Positions 672 through 18,348 of a DNA stretch of 64,000 nucleotides are shown one piece after another; positions within the stretch are counted from its first letter, which is position 1, and each line of letters starts with the position of its first letter. Made by a program: the position numbers and the translations under genes. The stretch comes from Nitrospirota bacterium (lineage in GTDB: Bacteria; Nitrospirota; Thermodesulfovibrionia; Thermodesulfovibrionales; JdFR-88). The stretch covers positions 17,790-81,789 of the forward strand of contig JAKAHV010000011.1 in NCBI GenBank assembly GCA_021825295.1, read 5' to 3'. A model generated the notes under the pieces. The model was given only the letters and a program-made list of their open reading frames with translations. It had not been told where the DNA came from and did not search any database.

Positions 672-674
672 AGG

Positions 675-865: not shown

Positions 866-906
866 TGTCCTGTCCCGGAGTTCCCGTTAAAATTATCAGC
901 ATGGGA

Positions 907-1276: not shown

Positions 1277-1291
1277 TGGCATGGCAATTGC
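1277..1291 (+). promoter_or_regulatory. Candidate sigma-54 (-24/-12) promoter TGGCATGGCAATTGC
   Basis: Matches TGGCAC-N5-TTGC with GG and GC spaced 10 nt. The C of the -12 GC lies 13 nt before ATG 1305. The identical 15-mer recurs at 57997-58011. Confidence 0.5.
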
Positions 1292-1304
1292 AATTACAGT
1301 GTGC

Positions 1305-1631: not shown

Positions 1632-1661
1632 CGTCTATAAAAAAAACAAAAAGGGGGCGTC

Positions 1662-2690: not shown

Positions 2691-2848
2691 CAAAAGGGGG
2701 GAGGTGATAAAGCCCGTCCAGAGGGAGAATGCGGGGGGAGAAAAAAACCGGATCGAATGTTTTGATTTGAGGGGAGGTTCAAAAGCGTATGTTCAAAAAA
2801 CTGTCCGCGATGTTTTCAAAAACAAGGGGACAAGAAGGAGAAAGGAAA

Positions 2849-3298: not shown

Positions 3299-3331
3299 GG
3301 AAAAGGAATTTACCGGCGGGAAAAATTAAAA

Positions 3332-3366
3332 AATTCCCCCACCCCTTTCAGGCGGGTGGGGGAATT
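3332..3366. other. 13-bp perfect GC-rich hairpin inside the operon
   Basis: AATTCCCCCACCC (3332-3344) pairs with GGGTGGGGGAATT (3354-3366) around a 9-nt loop. An A-run lies upstream on the + strand, so the structure looks like an intrinsic terminator only when read on the - strand. Confidence 0.5.
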
Positions 3367-3409
3367 CCCGGAAAACACGGAGATTTTTAGAAAAGGAGAT
3401 TTCATATAA

Positions 3410-4357: not shown

Positions 4358-4380
4358 TAAATGCATAAAAAGGAGCGCTA

Positions 4381-5418
4381 ATGGCTGAGACTAGGACAAT
4401 GACACCGAGGGAAAGGGTCCTGAAGATGTTTTCGGGGGCCGAAGTGGACAGGCCGCCGTGCTTCAGCGGCATGGGCAATGTCACCACGGCCGGGTTAAAG
4501 AATTTCGGCTATAAATTCGCCGCCCTCCATTCAAACGCAAGGATGATGGCGGACGCGGCCGCGGCCACTTACAAGCTGACGGGTTTCGAGTGCGGGGTAG
4601 TCCCCTTCGACCTCTGCGTGGAGGCGGAGGCCCTGGGGTGCGAGATAAACGTCTATGCCCATCTGGAGGACATCCTCTACCCGACCATAAGAAAAAAGAT
4701 CATCCACAATGAGGCCGGGATGGAGACAGTCAGCATCCCGGCGGACTTTGCCGGCAGGGGGAGGATACCCCTCGTAAAGGAGGCGATAAGGCTGCTGAAG
4801 GCCGGCATCGGGGGCGAGGTCGCAATCGGCTCGTATGTGCTGGGCCCCTTCACGCTCGCGGGCCAGATAATGGAGCTCAATGACCTCCTGAAACTCTCCT
4901 TCAAGAAGCCGGAGAAAGTGGGCAGGCTCCTTGAGATGCTGGCGGAGGCGATATCGCTCTATATCCGCGAGCTTGAGGATGCCGGGGCGGATTACATCAC
5001 TGTGAGGGAGATGGGGGCCACCTCGGACGTGCTTAGTCCCAGGGTCTTCAAAAACCTCATCCTGCCCCATCTGAAGAAGATATTCAGCCGGACAAGGGCG
5101 CACACGGTCCTGCACATCTGCGGAAAGACAAACGACATAGCCGTCTCCATGACGGAGTCCGGCGCCGGCGCGATCAGCGTGGACCAGAAAAACGACGTGG
5201 CCGAGACCAGGAAAAAGATCGGCAGCGCCCTGCTCTTCGGCAATTACGACCCTTACAACGTCCTTGTGGCAGGCACTGAAGAGGCGGTGCGCCAGGCGGT
5301 CAGGAAGTGCATGGATGACGGGGTGGACGCAGTATGGCCAGGCTGCGATATATGGCCCACCGTGCCGGTGGAAAATATAAAGGCCATGATGGATGAAGTG
5401 ATAAATTACAGGAGGTAG
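4381..5418 (+). CDS. URO-D/MtaA/CmuA-family corrinoid methyltransferase, paralog 2
   Basis: 345 aa with PRERVLKMFSG..VDRPP, VLHICGK (H-x-C) and WPGCDIWP. The stop lies 2 nt before the corrinoid protein start. Confidence 0.8.
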   Translation: MAETRTMTPRERVLKMFSGAEVDRPPCFSGMGNVTTAGLKNFGYKFAALHSNARMMADAAAATYKLTGFECGVVPFDLCVEAEALGCEINVYAHLEDILYPTIRKKIIHNEAGMETVSIPADFAGRGRIPLVKEAIRLLKAGIGGEVAIGSYVLGPFTLAGQIMELNDLLKLSFKKPEKVGRLLEMLAEAISLYIRELEDAGADYITVREMGATSDVLSPRVFKNLILPHLKKIFSRTRAHTVLHICGKTNDIAVSMTESGAGAISVDQKNDVAETRKKIGSALLFGNYDPYNVLVAGTEEAVRQAVRKCMDDGVDAVWPGCDIWPTVPVENIKAMMDEVINYRR

Positions 5419-5420
5419 AC

Positions 5421-6113
5421 ATGGTTACGGAAGAAAAAAGGCAAGAACTTTTAAACAGGCTGAAAAACTCCGTCATCCAGTACGACGAGGACGGGGCCAA
5501 GGAGGCCTCGAACGAGGTCGTCGCCCTGGGGATGGACGCCAACGACGCCATCTTCAACGGCCTCGTCAGCGGGATGGAGGAGGTAGGCAGGCTCTTCGAG
5601 GCCCAGGAGTACTTCGTGCCCGAACTCCTGATGTCGGCCGACGCGCTTTACGCGGGGCTGGATATCCTGAAACCCCATGTGAAACAACTGGACCTGGGGG
5701 TGAAGGGCTCGGTCGTCATCGGCACGGTCGAGGGAGACGTCCACGACATAGGCAAGAACATCGTGAAGATGATGTTCGACGTGGCCGGCTTCACGGTATA
5801 CGATCTGGGCCGGGACGTGCCCCTGGACAAGTTCGTGGAGGAGCAGCTCCGCACGGACTCCGACCTTGTCTGCCTGTCGGCCATGATGACCACCACGATG
5901 GTGGGCATGAAAAAGGTGATAAGCGACCTGAAGGCGAAAAACCCGAACGTCAGGATCATGATAGGCGGCGCGCCGGTCTCCTCGGACATAGCCGGCAAGT
6001 GGGGTGCCGACGGCTACGCCAAGGACGCCAACAACGCCCTCAAGGACGCCATCAACATGGTCAGCTCCCTCAAGAAGATGAAGGAAGAGGCCGAGGCGAA
6101 GAAGCGGGGCTAG
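5421..6113 (+). CDS. Corrinoid (B12-binding) methyl-carrier protein
   Basis: Helical cap plus Rossmann B12 domain. DVHDIGKN (DxHxxG), SAMMTTT and IMIGGAP are present. Confidence 0.9.
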   Translation: MVTEEKRQELLNRLKNSVIQYDEDGAKEASNEVVALGMDANDAIFNGLVSGMEEVGRLFEAQEYFVPELLMSADALYAGLDILKPHVKQLDLGVKGSVVIGTVEGDVHDIGKNIVKMMFDVAGFTVYDLGRDVPLDKFVEEQLRTDSDLVCLSAMMTTTMVGMKKVISDLKAKNPNVRIMIGGAPVSSDIAGKWGADGYAKDANNALKDAINMVSSLKKMKEEAEAKKRG

Positions 6114-6123
6114 GAAACTCAGG

Positions 6124-6783
6124 ATGAATTTTCATTCCGGTTTGAGGGTGGAGCTTATCGGCGCAGGGGCGGCCGTGGTGGGGTTTGCCTGCGTGAAGGA
6201 AGTAACAAGCGGGGACATCTCTCATCTTGAGCGCGCAATCTCCATAGGCGTGGTCAAGAACCTCAATGAACGGACGGTCCGCCTGCTTGTCGCACTCGAA
6301 AAAAGGGCCGCCCGGCGGCTGAGGGAGAGAGGCTACAGGTATTTGTGCATCCCGCCTGACTCCGACAGGGCCAACGGCACATTCATATCGAAACTCTATC
6401 CGCTCATTACCCACAAGATGGCGGCAACCCTCTCCGGACTGGGCTGGATAGGCAGAAACGGGCTCCTGATAAACCCGGTGTACGGGCCGCGGCTGTCTTT
6501 TGCCACGGTGCTTACTGACGCGCCGCTTCAGACCGGCACGCCGGTCACCGGCAGCAAGTGCGGGGGATGCACGCTGTGCATGGATTTCTGCCCCTCGCAC
6601 GCGATTACGGGAAACGAGTGGTCGCAGGGCGTCCCCTATGCGGACCTTGTCCGGACAAAAAAATGCTCGTCCTGGAAGGAAGGCATCCGGGCCACAAGCG
6701 GCAAGCCCAACTGCGGCCTCTGCATCAATATCTGCCCCTACGGCAGAAACGCTGCGTCAGCTTTAAAGGATAGAATTCATTGA
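6124..6783 (+). CDS. QueG/reductive-dehalogenase-like 2x[4Fe-4S] protein (short form)
   Basis: HKMAATLSGLGWIGRNGLLINPVYGPRLSFATVLTDAPL resembles the QueG/RdhA core. Two Cys clusters are present: CGGCTLCMDFCP and CGLCINICP. Confidence 0.6.
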   Translation: MNFHSGLRVELIGAGAAVVGFACVKEVTSGDISHLERAISIGVVKNLNERTVRLLVALEKRAARRLRERGYRYLCIPPDSDRANGTFISKLYPLITHKMAATLSGLGWIGRNGLLINPVYGPRLSFATVLTDAPLQTGTPVTGSKCGGCTLCMDFCPSHAITGNEWSQGVPYADLVRTKKCSSWKEGIRATSGKPNCGLCINICPYGRNAASALKDRIH

Positions 6784-6801
6784 TGGAGGAATCTTAAGAG
6801 A

Positions 6802-8778
6802 ATGACCAGGCACAGAGTGATTTTTCAGCCCTCCGGCAGGAGGGGCGAGGTAGAAGACGGCACGAACCTTCTGGATGCCGCCCGCAACCTCGGGGTTGAC
6901 ATAGAGTCGATCTGCGGCGGCAAGGGCACCTGCGGCAAATGCAAGGTAAGGGTGGAGGAGGGTTTTTTTGAGAAGGACTCGATGGACTCCAGAATGGGCC
7001 ACCTCTCCCCGCTTACCGGCCAGGAGATGAAATTCCTGAAACCCTCGGACGGACCGGCCATGAGGCTTGCCTGCGCGGCGCAGGTGCACGGAGACGTGAA
7101 GATATTCGTCCCGGAGAAGTCCAGGGCCGGCAAGCAGATCGTGAGAAAAGCTGCAAAGGAGCTGAGCATCGCGGTGGAGCCGGCCGTGAGGAAATATTTC
7201 GTGGAACTGGCAAAGCCGTCCCTCAATGAGCCCATCACGGGGGATTTCGAAAGGCTCCGCGAGGCCCTCCGCAGGCAGGCGGGCGTCGACGCCCTTTCCA
7301 TGGATTTCCCGGTGCTCAGGGACCTCCAGGACGCAATCAGGAAAGGCAACTGGGGCGTTACCGTCACCCTCTGGAAGGGCCGTGAGATAATAAAAGTGGA
7401 GCCGGGCTTCGTGGAGGCGGCCTACGGGCTTGCCGTGGACGTGGGGACCACTACGGTCGTGGGCTATCTTACCGATCTTGCCACGGGAAAGGTCGTAAAC
7501 ACCGGGTCCATGATGAACCCGCAGGTCCCCTACGGCGAGGACGTGATGTCCCGGATCACCTACGCCATGACTAACGAAGGCGGCGTCCAGAGGATGCAGA
7601 AGGCGATAATCGACGGCCTGAACGAGATCATCGCCAATGTGACAAAGGACCTCAGGATAAACGGCGGGGCCTCCGGCGGGGAGGCGATAGTCGACCTGAC
7701 AATCGTCTTCAATACCGCCATGCACCACATATTCCTCGGCTTCAACCCGGAGCACATCGGGCGTTCCCCCTTCATCCCGGCCATTCAGCACGGCATCGGC
7801 ATAAAGGCAAGGGACCTGGGGATAAAGATAAACCCGGGCTCCTACATATACGTGCTGCCGATAGAGGCGGGATTCGTGGGCGCCGACAACGTGGGGGTGC
7901 TGATCGCGGAGGAGCCCTACAACATGGACGAAAACGTCCTTATCATAGACATAGGCACAAACGGCGAGCTGCTGCTTGGCAACAGGACGCGGGTCTGCTC
8001 CACGTCCTGCGCGACCGGGCCCGCCTTCGAGGGCGCGCAGATAAAGATGGGCATGCGCGCCGCGCCGGGCGCGATTGAGAAGGTGAGGATAGACCCGGCA
8101 ACCAAGGAGCCCCTCTACAAGGTGATCGGCAAGGAGGACTGGCACACGCGCGTGGAGAAGATAGACGCCAAGGGGATATGCGGCTCCGGCATCATAGACG
8201 CCATTGCCGAGATGTACAAGGCGGGCATAATAGACAAATCCGGGAAGTTCGACATGACGGTGAAGAACCGCCGTGTGCGAAGGGACCACGACGGGAAACC
8301 GGAATACGTGCTTGCCTGGGCCGGCGAGACATCCATCGGAACGGACATAACCATAAACCAGGGGGACGTACGGGCCCTGCAGCTTGCGAAGGCGGCGCTC
8401 TACGCCGGGGCGAAGCTCATGATGCAGAAGATGGGCATGGAGAAACTGGACAAGGTGATACTGGCCGGGGCCTTCGGCAGCTACATAGACAAGGAAGCGG
8501 CGATGACACTGGGGATGTTCCCCGACTGCGAAATCGACAAGGTCTACGCGGTCGGCAACGCGGCCGGCGACGGCGCGAGGATGGCCCTCCTGAACACCTC
8601 GAAGAGGGACGAGGCCGAGCAAAGGGCCAGGTGGGTGGAGTTCGTGGAGATAGCCGTAGAGCCGAACTTCGAGCGGGAGTTCATGCAGGCCATGCACCTG
8701 CCCCATATGAAGGACCGTTTCCCGAACTTAAAGAAGCTGCTCGAAAAGGCCGCCTCCCCGGTGGTGATAAATGGATAG
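6802..8778 (+). CDS. Reductive activase of corrinoid enzymes (RACE/COG3894 type; 2Fe-2S ferredoxin + ASKHA ATPase)
   Basis: N-terminal plant-type ferredoxin motif CGGKGTCGKCKV. ASKHA motifs are GLAVDVGTTTVVG, IDIGTNGE and GICGSGIIDA. Confidence 0.85.
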   Translation: MTRHRVIFQPSGRRGEVEDGTNLLDAARNLGVDIESICGGKGTCGKCKVRVEEGFFEKDSMDSRMGHLSPLTGQEMKFLKPSDGPAMRLACAAQVHGDVKIFVPEKSRAGKQIVRKAAKELSIAVEPAVRKYFVELAKPSLNEPITGDFERLREALRRQAGVDALSMDFPVLRDLQDAIRKGNWGVTVTLWKGREIIKVEPGFVEAAYGLAVDVGTTTVVGYLTDLATGKVVNTGSMMNPQVPYGEDVMSRITYAMTNEGGVQRMQKAIIDGLNEIIANVTKDLRINGGASGGEAIVDLTIVFNTAMHHIFLGFNPEHIGRSPFIPAIQHGIGIKARDLGIKINPGSYIYVLPIEAGFVGADNVGVLIAEEPYNMDENVLIIDIGTNGELLLGNRTRVCSTSCATGPAFEGAQIKMGMRAAPGAIEKVRIDPATKEPLYKVIGKEDWHTRVEKIDAKGICGSGIIDAIAEMYKAGIIDKSGKFDMTVKNRRVRRDHDGKPEYVLAWAGETSIGTDITINQGDVRALQLAKAALYAGAKLMMQKMGMEKLDKVILAGAFGSYIDKEAAMTLGMFPDCEIDKVYAVGNAAGDGARMALLNTSKRDEAEQRARWVEFVEIAVEPNFEREFMQAMHLPHMKDRFPNLKKLLEKAASPVVING

Positions 8779-8799
8779 CGGAACAGGACGGTTTTTGAG

Positions 8800-9114
8800 A
8801 TGACCAGGCTCAAAGTGAATTCAGGCGCATGCGGATTCATCTCCAGCGTAACGGTGGAGAAGGAAAAGGGAAAGAACGTCTCCGTGCGGATAGAGACGGA
8901 CTGTGAGATGGTGAGGAATCTGGGCCCGGAGATAGCCAGTCTCGAGATCATGAGCGTGGCCTTCACGAATTTCCTCAACAACCCGGTCTACAAGGCCGCC
9001 GCAAAACATCTCAGGCACGTGGCATGCCCCGTGCCCTGCGCGGTTATAAAAGCCGTCGAGGTTGAGTCGGGGTTTTGCCTGCCGCGCGACGTAAGCATGA
9101 CATTCGAAAAATAA
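8800..9114 (+). CDS. Small cysteine-containing hypothetical protein
   Basis: 104 aa with Cys in SGACGF, ETDCEM, VACPVPCAV and GFCLP. It lies between the RACE gene and folD on the same strand. I do not recognise the family. Confidence 0.5.
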   Translation: MTRLKVNSGACGFISSVTVEKEKGKNVSVRIETDCEMVRNLGPEIASLEIMSVAFTNFLNNPVYKAAAKHLRHVACPVPCAVIKAVEVESGFCLPRDVSMTFEK

Positions 9115-9184
9115 GTTTTTTTGGGGCGGCGGAGGGGGAAAAAGGAGATTTTTGATTGATTATGCGAAACCGGAGGCGGAAAGG

Positions 9185-10072
9185 ATGACCCGGGAAGCGG
9201 CAGCGACAATCGTGATGGACGGCAGGGGGCTTGCCGAGGAGATTAAAAAAGAGGTCGCGGCAGGCGTGCGGGAACTGGGGAATTCCGGCATCGATGCCGG
9301 TCTTGCCCTGCTTCTTGTGGGGGGCAACCCCGCCTCGAAGCAGTATTTTCTTGCCACAAAAAAGGCCGCAAAAAAGGCAGGCATAACCATCTATGAGTAC
9401 GTCCTGCCGGCCGATGCGTCAATGGGCGAGATACTTAACATAGTGAATTCGGTCAACCGCGATGAACGGATAAGCGGGCTCCTGCCGCTCATGCCGTTTC
9501 CAAGGAGGATCGACACCAGGCGGGTCGTAAACGCCATATCGCCCGGCAAGGACGTGGACGGACTGGGGGCGATCTCCATAGGCAGGCTCCAGGCGGACGA
9601 GCCCACTATCTTCGTTCCCTGCACTCCCTTTGGGGTAATAAGGCTGCTGGACCACTACGGCATAAACATCCGGGGCAAAAACGCGGTCGTGGTGGGCAAA
9701 AGCCTGGCTGTGGGAAAGCCCCTGGCCAACATGCTGCTTGCAAGGGAGGCCACTGTGACGGTCTGCCACAAGCAGACGCGGGACCTGGCCTTTTTCACCG
9801 GCGCCGCCGATATAGTCTGCTCCGCCACGGGTGTTAAAAACCTGATCAGCGGCCGGATGATAAAAGAGGGGGCCGTGGTGGTCGACATAGGCATAAACGT
9901 GCTGGCGGACGGCGGCATCGTGGGGGATGTCGATTTCGGCAGCGCCATGGGAAAGGCGGGATACCTGACCCCCGTGCCGGGCGGCGTGGGGCCGGTGACG
10001 ATAGCGATGCTCCTTGAAAACACCCTGAAATCGGCAAAGCGGAATGAAAACTCACAGGGGGCCCTGCCTTGA
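9185..10072 (+). CDS. folD: Bifunctional methylene-THF dehydrogenase / methenyl-THF cyclohydrolase
   Basis: IVMDGRGLAEEIKKEV, LLLVGGNPASKQY, GKNAVVVGKSLAVGKPLANMLL and PVPGGVGPVTIAMLLENT. ATG 9185 is preceded by GGAGG; the upstream TTG 9152 is also possible. Confidence 0.9.
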   Translation: MTREAAATIVMDGRGLAEEIKKEVAAGVRELGNSGIDAGLALLLVGGNPASKQYFLATKKAAKKAGITIYEYVLPADASMGEILNIVNSVNRDERISGLLPLMPFPRRIDTRRVVNAISPGKDVDGLGAISIGRLQADEPTIFVPCTPFGVIRLLDHYGINIRGKNAVVVGKSLAVGKPLANMLLAREATVTVCHKQTRDLAFFTGAADIVCSATGVKNLISGRMIKEGAVVVDIGINVLADGGIVGDVDFGSAMGKAGYLTPVPGGVGPVTIAMLLENTLKSAKRNENSQGALP

Positions 10073-10809
10073 CCGGAAAATTTCTCTTGCCCGGGAAATT
10101 CCTTGCCGTGGCCGCCTGGGCCGCTTACACGATTTTTTTTGTGAGGGTGGTGGCGCACGTGGCACTCTGGTTCAAAAGGCCCTGGCGCGGCGCCGCAGCG
10201 GGAATGCCCCCGGAGGATGTGAAATTAAAGCTCCCCGTCCTGCCCGTGATTGCGCCGGCTGCCCTTGAGGCGCTTTTTTTAAGGAGGCTCCTCAAGGCAA
10301 ACCCTGTCCTGTGGATTGGCGAGTGGGTCTTCCACATGAGCTTCGTCCTGGTGCTCCTGCGGCATCTGAGGTATTTTCTGACGCCCGTGCCGGAGTTCAT
10401 CTGGCGGATGCAGTTGCCCGGAAGGATCGCAGGCTATATCATGCCCTTCTCCCTTCTTTATATAATCATTGTAAAGGCAGTCGCGGGCAAAAGCAGATAC
10501 GCGTTTGGCTACAACTATTTTCTCCTTGTAACCCTTCTGCTCATCAGCGGGCTTGGCGTTCTCATGAGCACGGTCTTTCACCCGAACATCGTCGCCGTAA
10601 AGGAGTACATGATGAGCGCGCTCAGACTAAAGGCGGCGGCCTCCGTGGCGGCGGCCTGGAGCCTGCCCGGCGGCCTGCCGTTTCTCGCCCATTTCACCCT
10701 TGCGCTCGTACTGCTTGTTTACCTGCCCACTCACATATTTGCGGCCCCTTTCACGCTCTACGAGGCGAAGAAACGCGAGAAGACGCTGGGGAGGATTTTG
10801 CATGACTGA
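10069..10809 (+). CDS. NarI/HdrE/DsrM-type di-heme-b membrane subunit
   Basis: Multiple hydrophobic helices with His pairs in WVFHMSFVLVLLRHLRYF and LAHFTLALVLLVYLPTHIF. The TTG start overlaps the folD TGA (TTGA, 10069-10072). Confidence 0.65.
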   Translation: MTGKFLLPGKFLAVAAWAAYTIFFVRVVAHVALWFKRPWRGAAAGMPPEDVKLKLPVLPVIAPAALEALFLRRLLKANPVLWIGEWVFHMSFVLVLLRHLRYFLTPVPEFIWRMQLPGRIAGYIMPFSLLYIIIVKAVAGKSRYAFGYNYFLLVTLLLISGLGVLMSTVFHPNIVAVKEYMMSALRLKAAASVAAAWSLPGGLPFLAHFTLALVLLVYLPTHIFAAPFTLYEAKKREKTLGRILHD

Positions 10810-10842
10810 AGGGTTGAATAAACATTTCTCCGCCCTGAGTGA

Positions 10843-10881
10843 AACCCTCTCCCTAAAAAGGGAGAGGGTTGGGAGCGGGTG
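10843..10881. repeat. CCCTCTCCC/GGGAGAGGG hairpin repeat, copy 1 (inverted orientation)
   Basis: AACCCTCTCCC-TAAAAA-GGGAGAGGGTT followed by GGGAGCGGGTG. Same family as 15775-15813 and 49529-49577. Confidence 0.7.
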
Positions 10882-10901
10882 CAATATTGGCAGAGGGCTT
10901 T

Positions 10902-12113
10902 ATGCCTGAAAGTGAATCCTTCACCAGGTGCCTCTCGGCCGGCCAGCTCGTGGAGCTTGATGCCTGCGCCAGGTGCGGCGAATGCCTGAAATACTGCCCC
11001 GTGCAGGAGGTGACGTCGGACAAGTCCATATCGCCGCCGGAGAAAATCCGCCTCTTCAGGGAATTCATCGCGAATACGGAGGGCCTCAAATCGAAATTTT
11101 TCGGTCCGGGGAAGATAGACAGGAGGCTCCTTGAGGATTTCGCGAAGGCCGTCTATGAATGCACGACCTGCGGGGCGTGCGGGCAGGCATGCACCGTCGG
11201 CATATTCACCCAGAGGCTTTGGCCGATGCTCAGACGCGAGATGGTCAGGCGCGGGCTTGGTCCTTTTGGCAGCCAGCGCGAGACGCCGGCCGCGGTGGAA
11301 AAGACCGGCAACCCGTACGGGAAACCGGCCGGGGAGAGGTTTTCATCCTGGCTGCCGGCAGGGCTGAAGATCGCCGGGAGGGCAAAACTCGGCTATTACG
11401 CCGGATGCACAGGGGCCTATGAGGCGCAGCCGATGGTCAGGGGCGACGTGGAGGTGCTTGGAAAAATCGGCGAGCCTTTCACGATGCTGGATGCGGAGGA
11501 GGAGGCCTGCTGCGGTTTCCCGCTTTTCATAACCGGGCAATTCGAGCTGCTCGAGGGGCTGGTAAAAAGGCTGGTTGACGCCTATGCCCGAAGAGGGGTC
11601 GAGACGCTCGTCTGCTCATGTCCCTGCTGCGTCAATATGATGTCGAGGGACTGGCCCCCGTTCTACGGCGCGAAACTGCCCTTCAGGATAAGGCACATCA
11701 CCCAGTATGTGGCCGCCGCGCTCGACGGGGGAAGGCTGCGGATAAGCGGCGGCACCGGGGAAACACTGATCTATCACGACCCCTGTTATCTGTCTCGCGG
11801 GGTGGGCATCACGGAGGAGCCGCGGTCGATATTGCGCCGCATCCCGGGGGCGAATCTGCTTGAGTTCGACAGGCACGGGGCGCAGTCGCGCTGCTGCGGG
11901 GCGGGGGGCGCCGCCAGGAAGGTCTTTCACGACAACGCAATCGCCATCGCAAGGCTCTCGATCGATGAGGCCCGCCGCAAGGGGGCCCACAGGCTGGTGC
12001 TCAGTTGCCCGGCCTGTTATTCGAAGGTGGGCGAGGCGATGGCCGGCTATGGGGAAAATGAAAGGCATATCCGGATTGTCGACATAATGGAGCTTCTGTC
12101 GGGGGTAATATGA
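10902..12113 (+). CDS. HdrD/DsrK/GlpC-type Fe-S disulfide reductase subunit (2x[4Fe-4S] + 2 CCG domains)
   Basis: CARCGECLKYCP, CTTCGACGQAC, EEACCGFP...CSCPCC and SRCCGAGG...SCPAC. I chose ATG 10902 because TTG 10869 lies inside the hairpin repeat. Confidence 0.8.
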   Translation: MPESESFTRCLSAGQLVELDACARCGECLKYCPVQEVTSDKSISPPEKIRLFREFIANTEGLKSKFFGPGKIDRRLLEDFAKAVYECTTCGACGQACTVGIFTQRLWPMLRREMVRRGLGPFGSQRETPAAVEKTGNPYGKPAGERFSSWLPAGLKIAGRAKLGYYAGCTGAYEAQPMVRGDVEVLGKIGEPFTMLDAEEEACCGFPLFITGQFELLEGLVKRLVDAYARRGVETLVCSCPCCVNMMSRDWPPFYGAKLPFRIRHITQYVAAALDGGRLRISGGTGETLIYHDPCYLSRGVGITEEPRSILRRIPGANLLEFDRHGAQSRCCGAGGAARKVFHDNAIAIARLSIDEARRKGAHRLVLSCPACYSKVGEAMAGYGENERHIRIVDIMELLSGVI

Positions 12114-13366
12114 GCCACTTCACCATCGCGTGCAGGAAATGCGGCAAGGAGCTTGAGGACGCCTACTGCGCCTTTTGCGAACATTGCGCAAACGCCCTAC
12201 TCGTGACGAGATACAGGGAGAAGAAGTTCAGGGAAGAGGCGGCGGAGGGCATCTGGAGATTTTCCAACTGGCTGCCGGTCCACAAGGCCGCCTTCCCGCA
12301 GCCCTCTCCCATAGTGTTCCGATCCGAGGGGTTTGCCGGAAAGATCGGCCTTGAGGAGCTTTACGTCGTTTTTTGCGGTTACTGGCCCGAAAGGGGCGCA
12401 AATCTTCTGACCTGCACCTTCAAGGAGTTCGAGGCGGCCACCGTCATCGCAAACGCGATGGAAAACCATATAGACGGGCTTGTAGTGGCCTCGGCGGGCA
12501 ACACCGCCAGGGCCTTTACCCATCTCTCATCGGTCTCCGGCTTTCAGGCTGTTATAATAGTCCCCACGATGTGCCTTGGCGAGATGTGGAACCTGGAGGA
12601 GAAGCCCTCAGCCCCGACCATCGCGCTTTCGGACGGCGACTATTCGGACTCGATAGCCGCCGCAAGGCGGATATCGAGTCTTTCGGGCATGCCCTTCGAG
12701 GGCGGGGTAAAGAACATCGCCAAAAGAGACGGCCTCGGCATCGCCCTCCTGGAGGCCGTTGCCTGCATGAAGAAGCTCCCCCGCCATTATTTCCAGGCTG
12801 TGGGCAGCGGGGCCGGCGCAATAGCCACATGGGAGATGTCTGAAAGGTTTTTGGGCGACGGCAGGTTCGGCTCCGTGCCGCCCGCCCTGCACCTGGCCCA
12901 GAACCTGCCCTTCGCCCCGATGACGAAGGCGTACCTGAAGAAAAGCCGGGAAATCTTCGAGGAGGACCTGGACCCGGAACTCATTGGGGAGATCACCACC
13001 AGGGTGCTTTCGAACCGTTATCCGGCATACGGAGTTTCAGGGGGCGTCTTCGACGCCCTTGAGGCAACCGGCGGCTCGATGTACGGGGTCACAAACAGCG
13101 AGGTATACCGCGCGATGGAGATGTTCGAGGCCGCCGAGGGGATCGACATAGTGCCGGCCGCCGGAGTGGCCGCGGCCGCTTTAATACAGGCTGTGCGGCA
13201 GGGGAAGATACGCCCCGATGAGCCGGTGCTGCTGAATATAACCGGCGGCGGAGAGAAGCGGCTTCTTGAAGACAGGCAGGCGCACCGGGTGGACCCGGTG
13301 GTCATATCCAAAAAAATAACGGACGAGGAGATAAGGGAACTGCTGTGCTCGCTGAAGAAAAACTGA
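12110..13366 (+). CDS. Threonine-synthase-fold PLP enzyme, best fit cysteate synthase family
   Basis: N-terminal zinc ribbon (CRKCG...CAFCEHC), GYWPERGANLLTCTFKEFEA (putative PLP Lys), ASAGNTARAF, HYFQAVGSGAGA, DGRFG and QNLPFAPM. The ATG overlaps the upstream stop (ATGA, 12110-12113). Confidence 0.6.
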   Translation: MSHFTIACRKCGKELEDAYCAFCEHCANALLVTRYREKKFREEAAEGIWRFSNWLPVHKAAFPQPSPIVFRSEGFAGKIGLEELYVVFCGYWPERGANLLTCTFKEFEAATVIANAMENHIDGLVVASAGNTARAFTHLSSVSGFQAVIIVPTMCLGEMWNLEEKPSAPTIALSDGDYSDSIAAARRISSLSGMPFEGGVKNIAKRDGLGIALLEAVACMKKLPRHYFQAVGSGAGAIATWEMSERFLGDGRFGSVPPALHLAQNLPFAPMTKAYLKKSREIFEEDLDPELIGEITTRVLSNRYPAYGVSGGVFDALEATGGSMYGVTNSEVYRAMEMFEAAEGIDIVPAAGVAAAALIQAVRQGKIRPDEPVLLNITGGGEKRLLEDRQAHRVDPVVISKKITDEEIRELLCSLKKN

Positions 13367-14553
13367 TAGGAATGCTGGAGGCGGGCGGCGTGGATTTTAC
13401 GGCCAGCCTGCCCTGCGACAGGATGAAACGCCTTATCGCGATGGTGCCCCGGACATTCTTCCACATACCGCTTACGCGCGAGGAAGAGGGGGCCGGCATC
13501 TGCGCCGGGGCCGCGCTTTCTGGCAGGCGGCCGGCCATGTTCATTCAGAATTCAGGCGTCGGCAACATGATAAACGCCCTTCTGTCGCTCACCGGTTTTT
13601 ATGAGCTTCCCCTGGCCCTGTTCATAAGCCACAGGGGGCTGTACAAGGAAAAGATCGCGGCCCAGAGGCCGATGGGCGAAAAACTGCCCGGCATTCTACG
13701 GGGCGCCGGGATAGCCTTTACCAGAATCGAAAAAGCAAAAGACCTTAACCTGATACCCGGAAGGCTCGATCAGGTTTACAGGAAAAATAGAATCCACGCC
13801 TTCCTCCTGAGCCCGGCAGTCTGGGAGGAGGCAGAGGCAAAAGACAACATGCCGCAGCCGGTCCTCACTCTGTCATCTCCCGGCGGGAATCTCAGCCGCA
13901 GGCAAAGGGTTGCCCCGGCGCAGGGAAAAATTGAAAAGTTGAAACCCAGGCTTACCAGATATGAGATACTCCGCGCGGTCTGGCCCGCGCTTGAATCCAG
14001 GGCGGTCGTCTGCAATCTGGGATTTCCCGCGAGGGAGCTCTATCACATAGGGCACAGGCCCTCGCATTTCTACATGCTGGGCAGCATGGGAATGGCGACC
14101 CCGATAGGGCTGGGGATCGCGCTCGCCACGAAAAAAGAGATCGTCGTGATAGACGGTGACGGGGCCCTGCTGATGAACCCGGGCACCATGGCCACCGCCG
14201 CCTGCCTCCGCCCCGGCAACCTGACCGTCTTCGCCGTTGACAACGGGGCCTACGGTTCCACAGGGAACCAGCCCACGCTTGCCAGGCGGTGCATCGACCT
14301 GGAGGAGGCAGCCAGGGGGCTCGGATTCAGGCGCACAATCAAGGCGGCCGGCAAAAGACAGCTCATTCGATCGCTTGAAATAAAGGAGGGGGCGGATAGC
14401 CCATCCGCCCCCTCCGGACCCGGATTCATCCATGCACTCGCCCTTCCAGGCAACCGGGAAACACCGGTCATCCCGCTTGACCGCCTGGAGATAAAACGTC
14501 AGTTCATGGCTTTTTTAGATTCCCAGACTATTTATTCTCGTCCATACTGCTAA
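13345..14553 (+). CDS. Fused alpha+beta ThDP decarboxylase, sulfopyruvate decarboxylase (ComD-ComE)-like
   Basis: The alpha part has HIPLTREEEGAGICAGAALSGRRPAMFIQNSGVGNMINAL and ISHRGLYKEKIAAQRPMG. The beta part has YMLGSMGMATPIGLG and the ThDP motif IDGDGALLMNPG...VDNGAYGSTG. The GTG start overlaps the upstream gene by 22 nt; ATG 13372 is an alternative. Phosphonopyruvate decarboxylase cannot be excluded on motifs alone. Confidence 0.65.
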   Translation: MLAEEKLIGMLEAGGVDFTASLPCDRMKRLIAMVPRTFFHIPLTREEEGAGICAGAALSGRRPAMFIQNSGVGNMINALLSLTGFYELPLALFISHRGLYKEKIAAQRPMGEKLPGILRGAGIAFTRIEKAKDLNLIPGRLDQVYRKNRIHAFLLSPAVWEEAEAKDNMPQPVLTLSSPGGNLSRRQRVAPAQGKIEKLKPRLTRYEILRAVWPALESRAVVCNLGFPARELYHIGHRPSHFYMLGSMGMATPIGLGIALATKKEIVVIDGDGALLMNPGTMATAACLRPGNLTVFAVDNGAYGSTGNQPTLARRCIDLEEAARGLGFRRTIKAAGKRQLIRSLEIKEGADSPSAPSGPGFIHALALPGNRETPVIPLDRLEIKRQFMAFLDSQTIYSRPYC

Positions 14554-15052
14554 AAACCTTGATGTTCTTCAGGGAGCTCGGGTCCGCCTTCGCGGGATGG
14601 CACATCGCGCAGAAATTCTGCATCTTCGCCCCGCCGGCCGTGTCTACCCTGAGGTACTTGTAATTCGGGTTGGACGGATGGGGGTCATGGCAGCTTACGC
14701 ATTCCAGTTTCCCGTCCCTTAAATCCCATGCCGGCACCTTTGCCACCTTCGGGTTCGGCACTACGTCAAAAGGATGGCTGTGCTCGGGGGAAATGGGATC
14801 TATGCCCATCCCGCCGTTGTTCGGCGTCTGATGGCAGCCGAGGCACAGGGCGGTCACGCCCGAGTAGGGGCGCTTCGTCCTGGGATTGATGAGCTTGCTG
14901 TTGGGCTTCACCGCGAAGATCAACTGGCCCTTCGCCTTGTGGATCGAATGGCAGCCGGTGCACGAGAGGTCGTCATGAGGGCCGAAGGCAAAGGCGTAAG
15001 CGGGCAAGACAAGCAGAAGAAACGAGACAATAAGAACTCTGAACCAGGACAT
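14528..15052 (-). CDS. Tetraheme c-type cytochrome, secreted
   Basis: Four CXXCH motifs (CTGCH, CLGCH, CVSCH, CAMCH). Signal peptide MSWFRVLIVSFLLLVLPAYAFA. AGGAGG sits 6 nt upstream of ATG 15052. The 3' end overlaps the comDE-like gene by 26 nt in convergent orientation. Confidence 0.85.
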   Translation of the reverse strand: MSWFRVLIVSFLLLVLPAYAFAFGPHDDLSCTGCHSIHKAKGQLIFAVKPNSKLINPRTKRPYSGVTALCLGCHQTPNNGGMGIDPISPEHSHPFDVVPNPKVAKVPAWDLRDGKLECVSCHDPHPSNPNYKYLRVDTAGGAKMQNFCAMCHPAKADPSSLKNIKVFSSMDENK

Positions 15053-15086
15053 GATTTTCCCTCCTTGAAAGATTTTGATTTTAAAA

Positions 15087-15115
15087 AGAATACGTATTTC
15101 AAGGGGTTTTGTCAA
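15087..15115 (-). promoter_or_regulatory. Candidate sigma-70 promoter for the tetraheme cytochrome gene
   Basis: On the minus strand: TTGACA (15115-15110), a 17-nt spacer, then TATTCT (15092-15087). Confidence 0.35.
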
Positions 15116-15184
15116 TCATTGCAATCGGTTGGAAATGGGGCAATTTGGCTAACGCCGTGCGGGCGGGCGCTAAGCTGTCAAATG

Positions 15185-15766
15185 CTACAGTTGTCCTGTC
15201 TCGTGGTATTTCCTGATGTAGAGCCTCAGCGCCCTCTGTATGATCCAGTCCATCTGCAGCCCGTTGTCCACGGCTATCTCGTACAGGCTGTCCATTATCT
15301 CTTTTTCCATCAGGGACTGCTTGCCCTCGGCTTCCTCCGGCAGGGCCGTTTCTTTTGAAACCCCGGAGGACTTTTCCCGCTCGCGCGCAAGCAGACTTGA
15401 GAGCATCCGCACATCTCCTTCTCTTGCCGCGCGAAGGATATCCTCCGGCATTTTCACCTGGGCCGCTTCCGGGCCCGGCGGTTCCGCTTGAGGCGGCGCC
15501 TCGGACACGCCCTTTTTCCTCTTTCGGGAAGGCCCTTTTTTTTCTGCCGGTATCTGGATGCCCGACATCCCCATGGCCATCCCGGTCAGCCGTCTTGCGT
15601 ATTCGCCCTCCGGGATGTTCTTCTTCATGAACTCCTCCAGGGTCTTTTCCCCTCCGGCCATCGCCTCCTGAAGCCCGTCAAAAATGAGCCCTTCCCCCCC
15701 CTGGCCTTCCGGGACCGCCCCTTTTCGTCCGGGCGGCTGCGGCAAAGTCCTTCCTTTTTTCGGCAT
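15185..15766 (-). CDS. Hypothetical protein: K/P/E/G-rich, with a C-terminal ribbon-helix-helix-like segment
   Basis: The C-terminus EKEIMDSLYEIAVDNGLQMDWIIQRALRLYIRKY has a strand-helix-helix RHH pattern. I set the start at ATG 15766 because the longer ORF runs into the hairpin repeat. Confidence 0.45.
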   Translation of the reverse strand: MPKKGRTLPQPPGRKGAVPEGQGGEGLIFDGLQEAMAGGEKTLEEFMKKNIPEGEYARRLTGMAMGMSGIQIPAEKKGPSRKRKKGVSEAPPQAEPPGPEAAQVKMPEDILRAAREGDVRMLSSLLAREREKSSGVSKETALPEEAEGKQSLMEKEIMDSLYEIAVDNGLQMDWIIQRALRLYIRKYHETGQL

Positions 15767-15774
15767 GATCTGAA

Positions 15775-15813
15775 CACCCTCTCCCAACCCTCTCCCCCCA
15801 GGGGAAAGGGTTT
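15775..15813. repeat. CCCTCTCCC/GGGAGAGGG hairpin repeat, copy 2
   Basis: CACCCTCTCCCAACCCTCTCCCC-CCA-GGGGAAAGGGTT, lying between two minus-strand genes. Confidence 0.7.
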
Positions 15814-15857
15814 AACAAGATTCATGAAGATATCTAAATAATAGCACGCGCAGACGA

Positions 15858-16793
15858 TTATTGATTGCCAACCGGGCCGTAGTGGTCTCCCGGGGGATGG
15901 ATTTTGCGTATGAAGGAGGTATCGAATATCTCGTCCTCCGAAAGCTCGCGCCCGATATAGCCCATCCGCTTCATCGCCTTCACAAAGTCCATAGTCCCCT
16001 CGATGAATTCACGTGTAAGCTGGGCGCAATACCTGGGGGAAATGCCTATCGCCTCCAGGACAAAATCCTCATCGGCCACGCCCGTGTACGATGCGATCCT
16101 CCCGGCGCACAGGGCGGGCTGCCTCCGCATCATCTCCGTGGCCTCCTCGTGTTTTTTCAAAAAGTTTTCTATGACTTCAGGGTGGGCGTTCAAAAATCCG
16201 GATTCCGCCGCGATCCCGTAGCTCGGGTTTCCGGGCCAGATCATATGCGGTGGGACCAGCACCTTGCCGCCCGCGTAGCGCCTGATTGCTACGGCAAGCG
16301 CCGGGGTGCCAATCGCCGCCCGGACCTGCCCTTTTATCAGTGCCTCCGTGATGGCGTCCGCCCACTTGAAATTGACCACTTCGACCTCTCCGCGAAGGCC
16401 GGAGCGCTCCAGGCAATCCGCGAGGATAATGTCATGAATAGACCCTTTGCCCGGCACGCCTATCCTGGACCCCTTCAACTGGCCCAGCGCCTCCCCAAGG
16501 CCGGCTGCCTGCGGATAGCCTCTGAGGTCCGCCCCGCCGGAGAGGACGGTGCCTTCCATATGCCCGCCGGCGACACACCTTATCGCCACTGCCCGCTCCA
16601 TGCCGATTACGGCCGGGGGAAGCCCGATGTACGCAAGATCGATCGCGCCTTCTCTAAAGGCCTCCACAATCGCCGGCCCCGTGCCAAACAGCTTCCACTC
16701 GATCTCAACGCCGGGAAGGCAGCCTTCAGGTCCGGACATGAGCAGGACCGCAGTGTGATAGAATGTGGATAAGTGGCCGATCCTTAAATCCAT
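15858..16793 (-). CDS. Periplasmic-binding-protein-fold protein (NMT1/SsuA/TauA-like), no signal peptide
   Basis: 311 aa with IGHLSTFYHTAVLL, GAIDLAYIGLPPAVIG and VAGGHMEGTVL. The N-terminus is not hydrophobic, so the protein is probably cytoplasmic. Confidence 0.5.
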   Translation of the reverse strand: MDLRIGHLSTFYHTAVLLMSGPEGCLPGVEIEWKLFGTGPAIVEAFREGAIDLAYIGLPPAVIGMERAVAIRCVAGGHMEGTVLSGGADLRGYPQAAGLGEALGQLKGSRIGVPGKGSIHDIILADCLERSGLRGEVEVVNFKWADAITEALIKGQVRAAIGTPALAVAIRRYAGGKVLVPPHMIWPGNPSYGIAAESGFLNAHPEVIENFLKKHEEATEMMRRQPALCAGRIASYTGVADEDFVLEAIGISPRYCAQLTREFIEGTMDFVKAMKRMGYIGRELSEDEIFDTSFIRKIHPPGDHYGPVGNQ

Positions 16794-16893
16794 AGAAGCT
16801 CACGCATCTCCATGATTTTTAGTTTAACAGGATGCCGGACTGAATCGAAAGACAAAGACCCGAAAACGCAATGTCAATACAAGGAGGCACCGG

Positions 16894-18267
16894 ATGATCA
16901 CTCAAAAAACAGGTGAAAAAGCGGTGAAAAAGGCAGGCGCCGGAAAAAAACCGGAAGGGCATCTTGAGCTTATCGAAAAGATACGCTCCAGGGAGGCGCG
17001 GGTGGGCGTAATCGGGCTTGGATACGTGGGCCTGCCCCTTGTCTTTGAGTTCTCGCGCGCCGGCTTCGACGTGACGGGATTCGATATAGACTCCGAAAAG
17101 GTGAATCTCCTCAAACAGGGCAAAAGCTATATCAGCCATATCAATGAGAAAAAGATAAAGGCGCTTAAATCCTTCACTCCGACGTCCGATTTTTCCCGCA
17201 TTTTTGAGATGGACTGCGTCATCGTCTGCGTTCCCACCCCCTTGAACGCCAACCGGGAACCCGATATGACGTACGTCTTTGGCACGGCGGAATCCATAGC
17301 CGCCCATCTGAGGGCGGGACAGCTCATAGTGCTTGAGTCCACCACATACCCCGGCACTACCGGCCAGGACATGCGGGCGATACTTGAGCGTAACAAGGGC
17401 GGACTGAAGGCCGGCGTGGATTTCTATCTGGCCTATTCGCCGGAGCGCGAAGACCCGAACAACAGGGACTTTTCGACCCATACAATCCCCAAGGTAGTCG
17501 GCGGTTACACGCAAAAATGCCTGCAGGCGGCAAAGACCCTCTACGACACGATTGTGGTCCGGACCGTTCCGGTCTCCTCCACGCGGGTGGCGGAGACGAC
17601 AAAGCTGCTGGAGAATATTTACAGGGCAGTCAACATAGCCCTGGTCAACGAATTGAAGGGCCTCTTTGAGCGGATGGATATCGACATCTGGGAAGTCATC
17701 GAGGCATCCAAAACGAAACCCTTCGGGTTTCAGGCGTTCTACCCCGGCCCCGGCCTCGGCGGCCACTGCATCCCCATAGACCCGTTTTATCTCACCTGGA
17801 AGGCCAGGGAGTTCGACTGCCCGACCAAGTTCATCGAGCTGGCCGGCGAGATCAATACCGCGATGCCATACAGGGTGGTGGAGCGGACCGGGGAGGCGCT
17901 GAACGGACAGGGCAAGTGCCTGAAGGGGGCCAAAATCCTCGTCCTCGGACTGGCCTACAAAAAGGATGTGGACGACCCCAGGGAATCCCCGTCGTTCAAG
18001 CTGATAGAGCTGCTGGAGGGCAAAGGCGCCCTCGTAGACTACAACGACCCCTTCATACCCGCGGCCCCGAAGATGAGGCGCTTCCTGGTGGAGAAGACAT
18101 CGGTGCCACTGACCACGGAAAATCTCGCATCCTACGACTGCGTGCTCATCGCGACCGGCCATTCGGATTACGACCCGGGGTTCATCCTGGAGCATTCGAA
18201 ACTCATAGTGGACACGCGCAACCTCATCAAAGGCGGCAGGGGCTCGGGAAAGGTGGTAAAGGCATAG
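16894..18267 (+). CDS. UDP-N-acetyl-hexosamine 6-dehydrogenase family (WbpA/WecC/TviB-like nucleotide-sugar dehydrogenase)
   Basis: RVGVIGLGYVGLPLVFEF (NAD fold) and the catalytic Cys region GLGGHCIPIDP. Confidence 0.8.
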   Translation: MITQKTGEKAVKKAGAGKKPEGHLELIEKIRSREARVGVIGLGYVGLPLVFEFSRAGFDVTGFDIDSEKVNLLKQGKSYISHINEKKIKALKSFTPTSDFSRIFEMDCVIVCVPTPLNANREPDMTYVFGTAESIAAHLRAGQLIVLESTTYPGTTGQDMRAILERNKGGLKAGVDFYLAYSPEREDPNNRDFSTHTIPKVVGGYTQKCLQAAKTLYDTIVVRTVPVSSTRVAETTKLLENIYRAVNIALVNELKGLFERMDIDIWEVIEASKTKPFGFQAFYPGPGLGGHCIPIDPFYLTWKAREFDCPTKFIELAGEINTAMPYRVVERTGEALNGQGKCLKGAKILVLGLAYKKDVDDPRESPSFKLIELLEGKGALVDYNDPFIPAAPKMRRFLVEKTSVPLTTENLASYDCVLIATGHSDYDPGFILEHSKLIVDTRNLIKGGRGSGKVVKA

Positions 18268-18348
18268 ACCTGCGGGAATTTTTTTCTTTATACTAGAAGG
18301 GAAAATCTTTCCGCGGAGGTCTTTTACATTAACAGGGCCGCCATACTC

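Follow-up and report, generated by a model that had tools for sequence, protein, structure and literature searches.

Nitrospirota operons coupling cysteate synthase and ComDE to methyltransferase genes suggest a bacterial coenzyme M-like thiol

As a cofactor, coenzyme M (CoM) is ascribed to archaea that metabolise methane or alkanes and to a few bacteria that oxidise alkenes. In the Type 2 (phosphoserine) CoM cluster of Methanosarcinales and Methanomassiliicoccales, the gene for cysteate synthase (CS) lies directly beside those for ComD and ComE, in the order cs-comDE-MMP16 in M. acetivorans (PMC12068725) and CS...ComD-ComE-COG1900 in Methanomassiliicoccus. How sulfoacetaldehyde is turned into the thiol, the step that completes this route, is unsettled even in methanogens (PMC12068725). 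Here we analyse a 64-kb stretch of a Nitrospirota genome (contig JAKAHV010000011.1, hereafter the window, whose positions are used for all coordinates unless a locus is named) in which a CS of the same family of hidden Markov models (HMMs), 41-45% identical to those of the Type 2 clusters, is encoded beside a fused ComD+ComE protein. The region around these genes (10069-14553) is best explained as the 3' half of an operon that comprises about 13 genes, is driven by sigma-54 and is typical of Thermodesulfovibrionia-type Nitrospirota. Judged from sequence, this operon suggests that the bacteria bearing it make and methylate a CoM-like thiol. We give a probability of roughly 0.4 to the reading that such a thiol is made and used as a methyl carrier.

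Cysteate synthase, ComDE and their conservation in Nitrospirota

The gene at 12110-13366 (+) encodes a pyridoxal phosphate (PLP) enzyme with the Pfam domain PALP. The original prediction, made from the sequence alone, had taken it for a cysteate synthase on account of six peptide motifs (GYWPERGA, TCTFKEFEA, ASAGNTARAF, HYFQAVGSGAGA, DGRFG and QNLPFAPM), and we found all of them in the product. The HMM search that it had proposed bears this out: the protein scores 468.4 bits against the equivalog model TIGR03844 (cutoff 324.9) over profile positions 1-396 of 398, while the best threonine synthase model gives 73 bits. Among solved structures, the cysteate synthase 9k3c matches over its full length (309 bits, 42% identity in 402 columns), with the PLP-lysine motif TCTFKEFEA aligned to TCSFKETEA, and solved threonine synthases reach at most 53 bits. 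In a scan of 1.8 billion cluster representatives, the Nitrospirota CS proteins formed one tight clade. Their next relatives, at 40-49% identity, include Methanomassiliicoccus and Phycisphaerae proteins named cysteate synthase. Some representative proteins carry the CS domain naturally fused to a PAPS reductase or a D-2-hydroxyacid dehydrogenase (P0174 and P0173), which fits an enzyme that consumes sulfite and phosphoserine. Membership of the cysteate synthase family is well supported, and the enzyme is predicted to convert O-phosphoserine and sulfite to cysteate.

The CS gene overlaps by 22 nt (GTG start at 13345, CS stop at 13364-13366) the gene for a fused ComD+ComE sulfopyruvate-decarboxylase-like thiamine diphosphate (ThDP) enzyme with a variable inter-domain linker (13345-14553, +; Pfam TPP_enzyme_N and TPP_enzyme_C). 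Regarding the predicted match to ComD and ComE, the proposed searches with TIGR03845/TIGR03846 upheld the alpha half, ComD, which passes its curated cutoff (181.5 against 147.95 bits, residues 4-160), but the beta half, ComE, falls narrowly below its own (200.7 against 221.5 bits, profile positions 1-180 of 182). Jointly, the two models give 382 bits and beat the phosphonopyruvate decarboxylase model. One could argue that the enzymes have been misassigned, the ThDP enzyme being a phosphonopyruvate decarboxylase, the PLP enzyme the threonine synthase of the organism, or both. The phosphonopyruvate decarboxylase model does reach 194 bits, the best solved relatives of the ThDP enzyme are annotated as putative phosphonopyruvate decarboxylase subunits, and threonine synthase models match the PLP enzyme weakly. 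Those 194 bits, however, stand against a cutoff of 312, no phosphoenolpyruvate (PEP) mutase is encoded within the 64-kb window, and the threonine synthase scores given above are far from those for cysteate synthase, so we set aside both phosphonate biosynthesis and threonine synthase and consider a misassignment extremely unlikely. The predicted synthesis of sulfoacetaldehyde by CS and ComDE is well supported, because to the homology is added an adjacency of the two genes that mirrors the methanogen clusters.

We then asked how often this gene order recurs. The best 80 loci were taken from more than 570 species genomes with a CS relative (one genome per species), neighbourhoods were viewed 10 kb on either side of each match, and gene order was read by tblastn with the window proteins. 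All 80 loci are from Nitrospirota. The order UroD1-CMD-MtrH-UroD2-corrinoid protein-QueG-like ferredoxin-RACo-DUF6951-(FolD)-HdrE-HdrD-CS-ComDE was found in essentially every locus reaching far enough, with protein identities of 50-90%. The survey suggested by the original prediction hence gives co-conservation in one operon in at least 80 bacterial species, and since the same order is kept in essentially all of these genomes, the arrangement is not a chance juxtaposition. The gene junctions described earlier were all found in the window sequence, including the TTGA at 10069-10072, in which the folD stop overlaps the TTG start of the membrane protein gene, and the ATGA at 12110-12113, in which the stop of the HdrD-like gene overlaps the CS start. 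In 62 of 66 loci, the overlap between CS and ComDE measures 25-28 nt, and HdrE and HdrD overlap in 47 of 53. At the HdrD/CS junction, the 4-nt overlap was found in 20 of 66 loci only and was rejected as a universal feature; the gap is at most 20 nt in about half of the loci, with a maximum of 294 nt.

Several loci depart from this order. In L039, HdrE'-HdrD-CS-ComDE is kept, but the 7.8 kb upstream contain no methyltransferase genes, and L080 has the methyltransferase genes and CS-ComDE with no Hdr pair. In three to four species (L060 at 641-3162, L051 and L070), an SsuA-type periplasmic binding protein, a permease and an ATPase of the NitT/TauT family are encoded inside the operon. In about eight species, a methyl-accepting chemotaxis protein with a C-terminal region of about 190 residues and no family match lies between DUF6951 and the Hdr pair (L012 at 6477-8027, L060 at 3279-4826 and about six others). 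Transporters of the SsuABC type include the known CoM importer of M. acetivorans (PMC12068725).

Such importers also bear on a route running in the opposite direction, in which imported cysteate or sulfolactate would be degraded through sulfopyruvate to sulfoacetaldehyde and the sulfite released would feed dissimilatory reduction, as in organosulfonate-respiring bacteria. Among bacteria, ComDE is known from the degradation of sulfolactate (Roseovarius nubinhibens). The clade of the hosts is annotated as sulfate reducers in record names (Thermodesulfovibrionales, Ca. Sulfobium), which would suit this route too. Yet a cysteate synthase has no role in degradation, and no homologue of Xsc, IslA, CuyA or SuyAB was found in the window or recurrently nearby, the sole match of the CuyA model being a 23-bit local match of CS itself. 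With the synthase present and no desulfonating enzyme seen in the window, we set sulfonate degradation aside as very improbable.

The 3' coding region of the window's ComDE has a peculiarity of its own. At 14385-14415, a GC-rich stem of 14 bp forms a hairpin that, with its T-tail on the minus strand, has the look of a terminator for the convergent cytochrome c gene. An 8-residue insertion (EGADSPSA) that is missing from other ComDE orthologs falls at the same place, and the window's ComDE has a C-terminal extension that overlaps the end of the convergent cytochrome gene.

Methyltransferase and Hdr-like genes

Pfam searches identified, upstream of the Hdr-like pair, two URO-D proteins, a CMD-family protein, MtrH, a B12-binding protein, a ferredoxin-like protein, RACo, DUF6951 and FolD. 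The original prediction had linked both URO-D paralogs to CoM-methylating enzymes of the MtaA/MtbA type and had noted in each an H-x-C...C pattern, which we recovered as LVHICGN/PGCD in UroD1 (1662-2690, +) and VLHICGK/PGCD in UroD2 (4381-5418, +). The His and both Cys are invariant in 20 of 20 UroD1 and 48 of 48 UroD2 orthologs and align with the HxC and C of M. mazei MtaA. In this superfamily, S- and Se-methyltransferases hold zinc by His-Cys-Cys and O-demethylases replace the cysteines (PMC10418091). UroD2 passes the cutoffs of TIGR01463 (MtaA/CmuA; 247.3 against 235.4 bits) and of PRK06252 for methylcobalamin:CoM methyltransferase (275.1 against 244), and its end-to-end alignment with M. 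mazei MtaA shows 32% identity, which is as similar as genuine CoM methyltransferases are to one another (Kountz and Balskus, PMC10418091). UroD1 is more distant and does not pass TIGR01463 (186.9 bits against 235.4). The placement holds for UroD2, and in both paralogs as regards an S-type zinc site, but UroD1 stays below the family cutoff and is best described as an MtaA-like corrinoid methyltransferase paralog.

The rest of a methyl-transfer system lies around these genes. The MtrH homolog (3410-4357, +) that had been predicted is present: it passes NF002142 (330.6 bits, cutoff 287) and matches the MtgA model with 148 bits, which supports its place in the soluble MtrH family of methyl-pterin:corrinoid methyltransferases, a family that includes the methylcorrinoid:tetrahydrofolate (THF) methyltransferase MtgA. 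No other mtr subunit of the membrane Mtr complex is encoded in the operon, and the protein is of the soluble kind, like MtgA and MtoA. A B12-binding corrinoid carrier protein (5421-6113, +) is followed by a 219-aa protein with two [4Fe-4S] sites and eight invariant Cys (6124-6783, +), related to the core of epoxyqueuosine reductases and reductive dehalogenases; its residues ~92-213 match PDB 5d6s, 4ras and 4uqu. This QueG-like ferredoxin sits between the corrinoid protein and RACo, a reductive corrinoid-protein activator with an N-terminal 2Fe-2S domain (6802-8778, +). Dichloromethane (mec) and chloromethane dehalogenation systems have similar parts, but no link to CS-ComDE, and were set aside. 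The FolD gene (methylene-THF dehydrogenase/cyclohydrolase; 9152-10072, +) is an optional member found in about 11 of the 80 loci.

Next comes the pair that had been called HdrED-like. Its first gene (10069-10809, +) encodes a membrane di-haem cytochrome b of the HdrE/DsrM/NarI kind, assigned because four histidines (H89, H99, H208 and H222) are invariant in 55 orthologs and because a variant ortholog matches NarI-gamma in Pfam. The window protein itself has no Pfam match, its sole family match, to DsrM, is weak (44 bits, cutoff 300), and a PDB sequence search returned nothing useful. The second gene (10869-12113, +; the NCBI call starts at 10902) encodes an HdrD-like protein with two [4Fe-4S] sites and two CCG domains (Pfam: 4Fe-4S dicluster domains and two CCG stretches), for which the best models are TfrB, LdhH, GlpC and DsrK, all far below cutoff (153 bits against 385 for TfrB, 72 against 400 for DsrK). 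Hence the architecture of the pair is as predicted but no equivalog model is reached, and a solved HdrDE is not among the PDB sequence matches of the pair. Because the best models score so far below their cutoffs, we call it only a probable quinone-linked module of the HdrDE/DsrMK type rather than a heterodisulfide reductase. The pair had been proposed to recycle a cofactor disulfide. It is indeed in the operon, but it is coupled more tightly to CS-ComDE than to the methyltransferase genes, and as L039 keeps it with CS-ComDE and no methyltransferase genes, it may serve thiol biosynthesis rather than disulfide recycling.

Companion proteins and a possible route to the thiol

Just beyond ComDE, on the opposite strand, lies a gene that the original prediction had missed as a partner (15858-16793, -). 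It encodes a cytoplasmic protein of 311 aa with an NMT1_2 domain and no signal peptide, and the best matches of its AlphaFold model (pLDDT 90) are TauA, which binds taurine, and SsuA, which binds alkanesulfonates. A second lineage (L087, CS 49% identical) has CS-ComDE-NMT1_2 and, after it, genes for a 169-aa protein, a CMD protein and DUF6951; on an archaeal 788-kb contig (L089, CS 45% identical), the order is again CS-ComDE-NMT1_2, with ThiS alongside. The two NMT1_2 homologues (12360-13265 in L087 and 12374-13324 in L089) are 46% and 45% identical to the window protein over the full length, the same divergence as that of CS and ComDE themselves. More than 1800 relatives were found in Nitrospirota, the best 120 at 55% identity or more, and a metagenome scan with the archaeal protein as single query recovered only the query's own contig. 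Methanomassiliicoccus has a COG1900 (HcyBio) gene in the position beside CS and ComD/E, and an NMT1_2 gene is missing there. The protein is annotated everywhere as an ABC transporter binding protein. Since the family has many invariant His, Cys, Asp and Glu, it is more suggestive of an enzyme or a dedicated carrier than of a transport protein, and we regard it as a candidate third component of the CS-ComDE pathway, conserved across two domains of life.

Two small proteins encoded within the operon, previously treated as bystanders, turn out to travel with CS-ComDE in the second lineage as well, where their counterparts are 53% (CMD) and 39% (DUF6951) identical. The first is an AhpD/CMD-like redox protein (2789-3298, +; the NCBI call starts at 2849) with C92-x3-C96-x2-H99 and C143. 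It is the most conserved protein of the cluster, with 75-96% identity in most species compared with 50-70% for the enzymes, a pattern expected of a carrier or hub with many partners. The second, DUF6951 (8800-9114, +), is a small Cys-Cys-His-Cys protein with a predicted IscU/SufE-like fold. Its homologue search gave 12 proteins only. Its model (pLDDT 80) matches above noise only IscU, SufU, SufE and CsdE, and the invariant Cys11, Cys35, His73 and Cys76 resemble the set of ligands in IscU. A third lineage has RACo and a UroD1-like gene (35% identical, zinc ligands kept) at a distance of 4.5 kb from CS-ComDE.

Other genes accompany CS and ComDE here and there. A 200-aa protein without family match (15185-15787, -), co-oriented with the TauA/SsuA-like gene, is convergent just past ComDE in about half of the loci; hhalign showed no relation between it and the 169-aa protein of the second lineage. 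In L091 (1465-12349), genes for an aspartate-semialdehyde dehydrogenase, a UroD1-like protein and RACo lie a few kb from HAD-CS-ComDE-AbpE_bact-PLD-like genes, a cluster in which sulfoacetaldehyde or cysteate may be put to another use, such as a lipid head group. In or beside the CS/ComDE cluster of both Methanomassiliicoccus (L095, 11268-13358) and another lineage (L090, 6640-8745), there are genes for an ABC ATPase, a CobW-family GTPase and a PF04060 'FeS' protein.

From these parts, we propose a scheme in three steps. In the first, CS would make cysteate from O-phosphoserine and sulfite, a housekeeping aminotransferase from outside this region would turn cysteate into sulfopyruvate, and the fused ComDE would decarboxylate it to sulfoacetaldehyde. 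In the second, sulfoacetaldehyde would become a sulfonated thiol, CoM or a close analogue, without the archaeal COG1900/MMP16 enzyme: the cytoplasmic TauA/SsuA-fold protein may hold the C2 sulfonate, the IscU/SufE-like DUF6951 may relay sulfur, the AhpD-like CxxxC protein and the HdrD-like CCG protein may give reducing equivalents or resolve a disulfide intermediate, and the di-haem cytochrome b may take electrons from menaquinol. This chemistry is reasonable, as a sulfur donor and two electrons are required to put a thiol in the place of an aldehyde. Given ample sulfide, M. acetivorans can bypass the step (PMC12068725), and plentiful sulfide is plausible in sulfide-forming anaerobes. In the third step, the thiol would be methyl acceptor or donor of the zinc MtaA-like UroD2, and possibly of UroD1, on the corrinoid protein, which the soluble MtrH homolog would link to methyl-THF, with RACo and the QueG-like ferredoxin keeping cobalt reduced. 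The net result would be a soluble exchange between methyl-THF and a methyl-thioether without methyl-CoM reductase, and it might run either way, breaking down methyl-sulfur compounds in the direction of THF, MetF and FolD or methylating a thiol.

A number of observations weigh against this scheme. No COG1900/MMP16 or Xcb thiol-forming enzyme is encoded in the window, and none recurs within 10 kb in the 80 loci, as had been foreseen for the window when the late CoM steps were placed outside it. No Mcr or other consumer of methyl-CoM is evident. ComE scores just under its cutoff. Only about a quarter of the Nitrospirota loci have the TauA/SsuA-fold gene within 10 kb of ComDE. The fold match of DUF6951 is weak (best E 0.036, TM ~0.5), and in Lucifera butyrica this protein is encoded beside RACo, DUF1638, URO-D and a corrinoid protein, with no CS/ComDE within 10 kb, so that it may belong to the corrinoid/methyltransferase machinery. 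The roles given to the TauA/SsuA-fold, DUF6951, CMD and HdrD proteins are drawn from fold, conserved residues and co-location only. Finally, UroD, the corrinoid protein and MtrH would already make a complete substrate-to-THF demethylase, which does not logically need a carrier thiol. The relay through a CoM-like thiol that had been put forward keeps the sulfoacetaldehyde enzymes, the S-type URO-D proteins and MtrH, all co-conserved, on its side, but no late-step enzyme is seen. As for the scheme in its full extent, namely a COG1900-free late CoM pathway of a kind not known so far (TauA/SsuA-fold, IscU/SufE-like and AhpD-like proteins with HdrED), a thiol methyl carrier without methyl-CoM reductase and a TauA/SsuA-fold step in some archaea, we hold it to be doubtful.

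The last of these objections leads to the main rival, which sees two functions in one operon: a catabolic demethylase for external methyl-S or methyl-Se compounds (methanethiol, dimethylsulfide, methylmercaptopropionate and the like) that feeds methyl-THF to MetF and FolD, and a separate sulfonate branch in which HdrED-CS-ComDE and the TauA/SsuA-fold protein make a sulfonate or sulfonated thiol as redox buffer, as protectant or for sulfite detoxification, not as a methyl carrier. The architecture equals that of the Mto and Mtg systems, which need no carrier thiol, and MetF lies upstream and FolD inside the operon. The chemoreceptor in about eight loci and the ABC importer in three to four both suggest an external substrate, and the modules are separable, as seen in L039 and L080 and in L087 and L089, which have CS-ComDE and a TauA-like gene with no visible methyltransferase genes. 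Furthermore, comDE overexpression is stated in PMC12713407 to protect methanogens from oxidative stress. Against this explanation, both modules stay in one operon across 80 species at 50-70% identity, while FolD comes and goes. The AhpD-like protein and DUF6951, companions of CS-ComDE elsewhere, are here interleaved with the methyltransferase genes, the third lineage has its UroD1-like gene and RACo near CS-ComDE, and a thiol substrate, which the same operon could supply, would suit the S-type zinc sites. We consider two separate functions possible, if rather unlikely.

The sulfonate could also end in a product other than a thiol, such as taurine, isethionate, sulfoacetate or the head group of a sulfonolipid or polysaccharide, with HdrED as a quinone-linked electron module. 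CS homologues do occur without ComDE elsewhere, for instance in a polysaccharide cluster (L093) and beside AbpE and PLD-type genes (L091), and cysteate synthase is used for sulfonolipids in Bacteroidota (PMC11211663). The window holds a large polysaccharide locus with a sulfotransferase, and CCG proteins are found in non-thiol dehydrogenases too, GlpC, LdhH and GlcF being among the matches of the HdrD-like protein. In the 80 loci, however, no aminotransferase, reductase, dehydrogenase or lipid/glycosyl transferase is conserved beside CS-ComDE, and the companions that are conserved are all of the thiol, persulfide or disulfide type (the AhpD-like CxxxC, IscU/SufE-like and CCG proteins and the S-type zinc methyltransferases). 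By comparing these points, we find a non-thiol product improbable and retain the CoM-like thiol, used as a methyl carrier, as the preferred reading.

Genomic setting and comparison with known systems

The operon begins behind a sigma-54-type -24/-12 element, TGGCATGGCAATTGCA, found by pattern search at 1277-1292 (+). The pattern has 2 matches in the window, with 0.11 expected by chance. At 1159-1243, 35-120 nt upstream of the element, palindromic and direct repeats of the GGGAAAAATTCCC type are possible sites for an enhancer-binding protein. A small receiver-domain-like open reading frame with a weak Response_reg match (1305-1631, +) precedes UroD1 and is conserved in this position in at least eight loci. 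The second sigma-54-type element, TGGCATGGCAATTGCT at 57997-58012 (+), differs from that of the operon at the last base only. The hybrid sensor kinase encoded downstream of it (58148-61612; 1154 aa), which has PAS domains and a binding domain of the phosphonate/sulfonate type, could be the sensor of the operon or share its regulation.

Upstream of the promoter, the 3' part of a MetF-like (methylene-THF reductase) gene, recognised by eye in the translation, is cut by the window edge (15-671, +) and forms a separate transcription unit. Between this gene and the promoter, there are two units resembling miniature inverted-repeat transposable elements (675-865 and 907-1075), each of ~170-190 nt, with terminal inverted repeats of 19-27 nt and a common 30-nt internal repeat. 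An Rfam search of positions 1-20000 revealed no riboswitch or other RNA. The rest of the window carries polysaccharide-synthesis genes, including Wzm/Wzt-type ABC genes and a sulfotransferase, multihaem cytochromes, a tetratricopeptide-repeat (TPR)/thioredoxin-like protein, the hybrid sensor kinase and cytochrome bd. Contig DAIEOX010000025.1 of assembly GCA_027348725.1 includes a stretch identical to the window, and the closest relatives of the window are metagenome-assembled genomes labelled Nitrospirae, Nitrospirota, Thermodesulfovibrionales or Ca. Sulfobium. Because of this flanking content (Wzm/Wzt, cytochromes, the TPR protein and the sensor kinase), the context of the operon is bacterial, in agreement with the original prediction. 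The sulfotransferase gene (26225-26980, -) lies inside the large downstream polysaccharide-synthesis locus, and therefore the organism probably makes a sulfated glycan.

If a widespread bacterial clade does make and methylate such a thiol, the known distribution of CoM would change, 'methanogen marker' genes (mtaA, mtrH, hdrDE, cs, comDE) in metagenomes would have to be read differently, and models of methyl-sulfur cycling in anoxic aquifers and sediments would change. The clade is environmentally abundant, with thousands of protein clusters next to the more than 570 species genomes with a CS relative. The TauA/SsuA-fold protein, conserved in both domains, offers a concrete and testable candidate for the sulfoacetaldehyde-to-thiol step. 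Should the idea of a thiol fail, the operon would remain a well-defined, uncharacterised S-methyltransferase system with clear experimental handles. In full-text searches of the literature, we found no description of the cluster and no link of cysteate synthase or ComDE with Nitrospirota.

Compared with the Type 2 CoM cluster, the host here is bacterial and no COG1900/MMP16 gene lies alongside; instead, the TauA/SsuA-fold protein, the AhpD-like protein and DUF6951 accompany CS-ComDE, and the HdrED-like pair precedes them in the operon. The only other bacterial route considered, that of xcbB1-E1 in Xanthobacter autotrophicus (PMC9457059), likewise leads to a C2 sulfonated thiol, as would be the case here, and likewise starts with the addition of sulfite. 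It proceeds, in contrast, with a wholly different set of enzymes, by ComA-type sulfonation of PEP and aspartase-fold phosphate elimination, and it serves alkene metabolism instead of methyl transfer.

Regarding methyl transfer, the operon resembles MtaABC, MtbA, MtsAB and the type 1 mlp clusters (PMC10418091) in having several His-Cys-Cys MtaA-like URO-D proteins, one corrinoid protein and RACE/RACo, and in its proposed S- (or Se-) methyl transfer chemistry. Unlike type 1 clusters, which have no THF methylase of any kind (PMC10418091), it encodes a pterin methyltransferase of the MtrH type and is linked to CS-ComDE and HdrED, and its Nitrospirota host belongs to a phylum not mentioned in that survey. 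With the Mto (methoxydotrophy) and Mtg (glycine betaine) systems it shares two URO-D proteins, one corrinoid protein, a soluble MtrH and an activase with an N-terminal 2Fe-2S domain, as in the archaeal Mto operon; O-demethylases, however, replace the zinc cysteines (PMC10418091), both of which are invariant here, and the operon has no MttB- or MtgB-type enzyme. The Hdr-like pair has the cytochrome b followed by the CCG protein, the four haem-ligand His, the two [4Fe-4S] sites and the two CCG domains of HdrDE from Methanosarcina and of DsrMK/HmeCD from sulfate reducers, from which it differs in reaching no equivalog model and in being coupled to a biosynthetic gene pair. The parts of the operon are all known families; new to the searchable literature are their combination, the bacterial host range and the cross-domain triad of CS, ComDE and the TauA/SsuA-fold protein.

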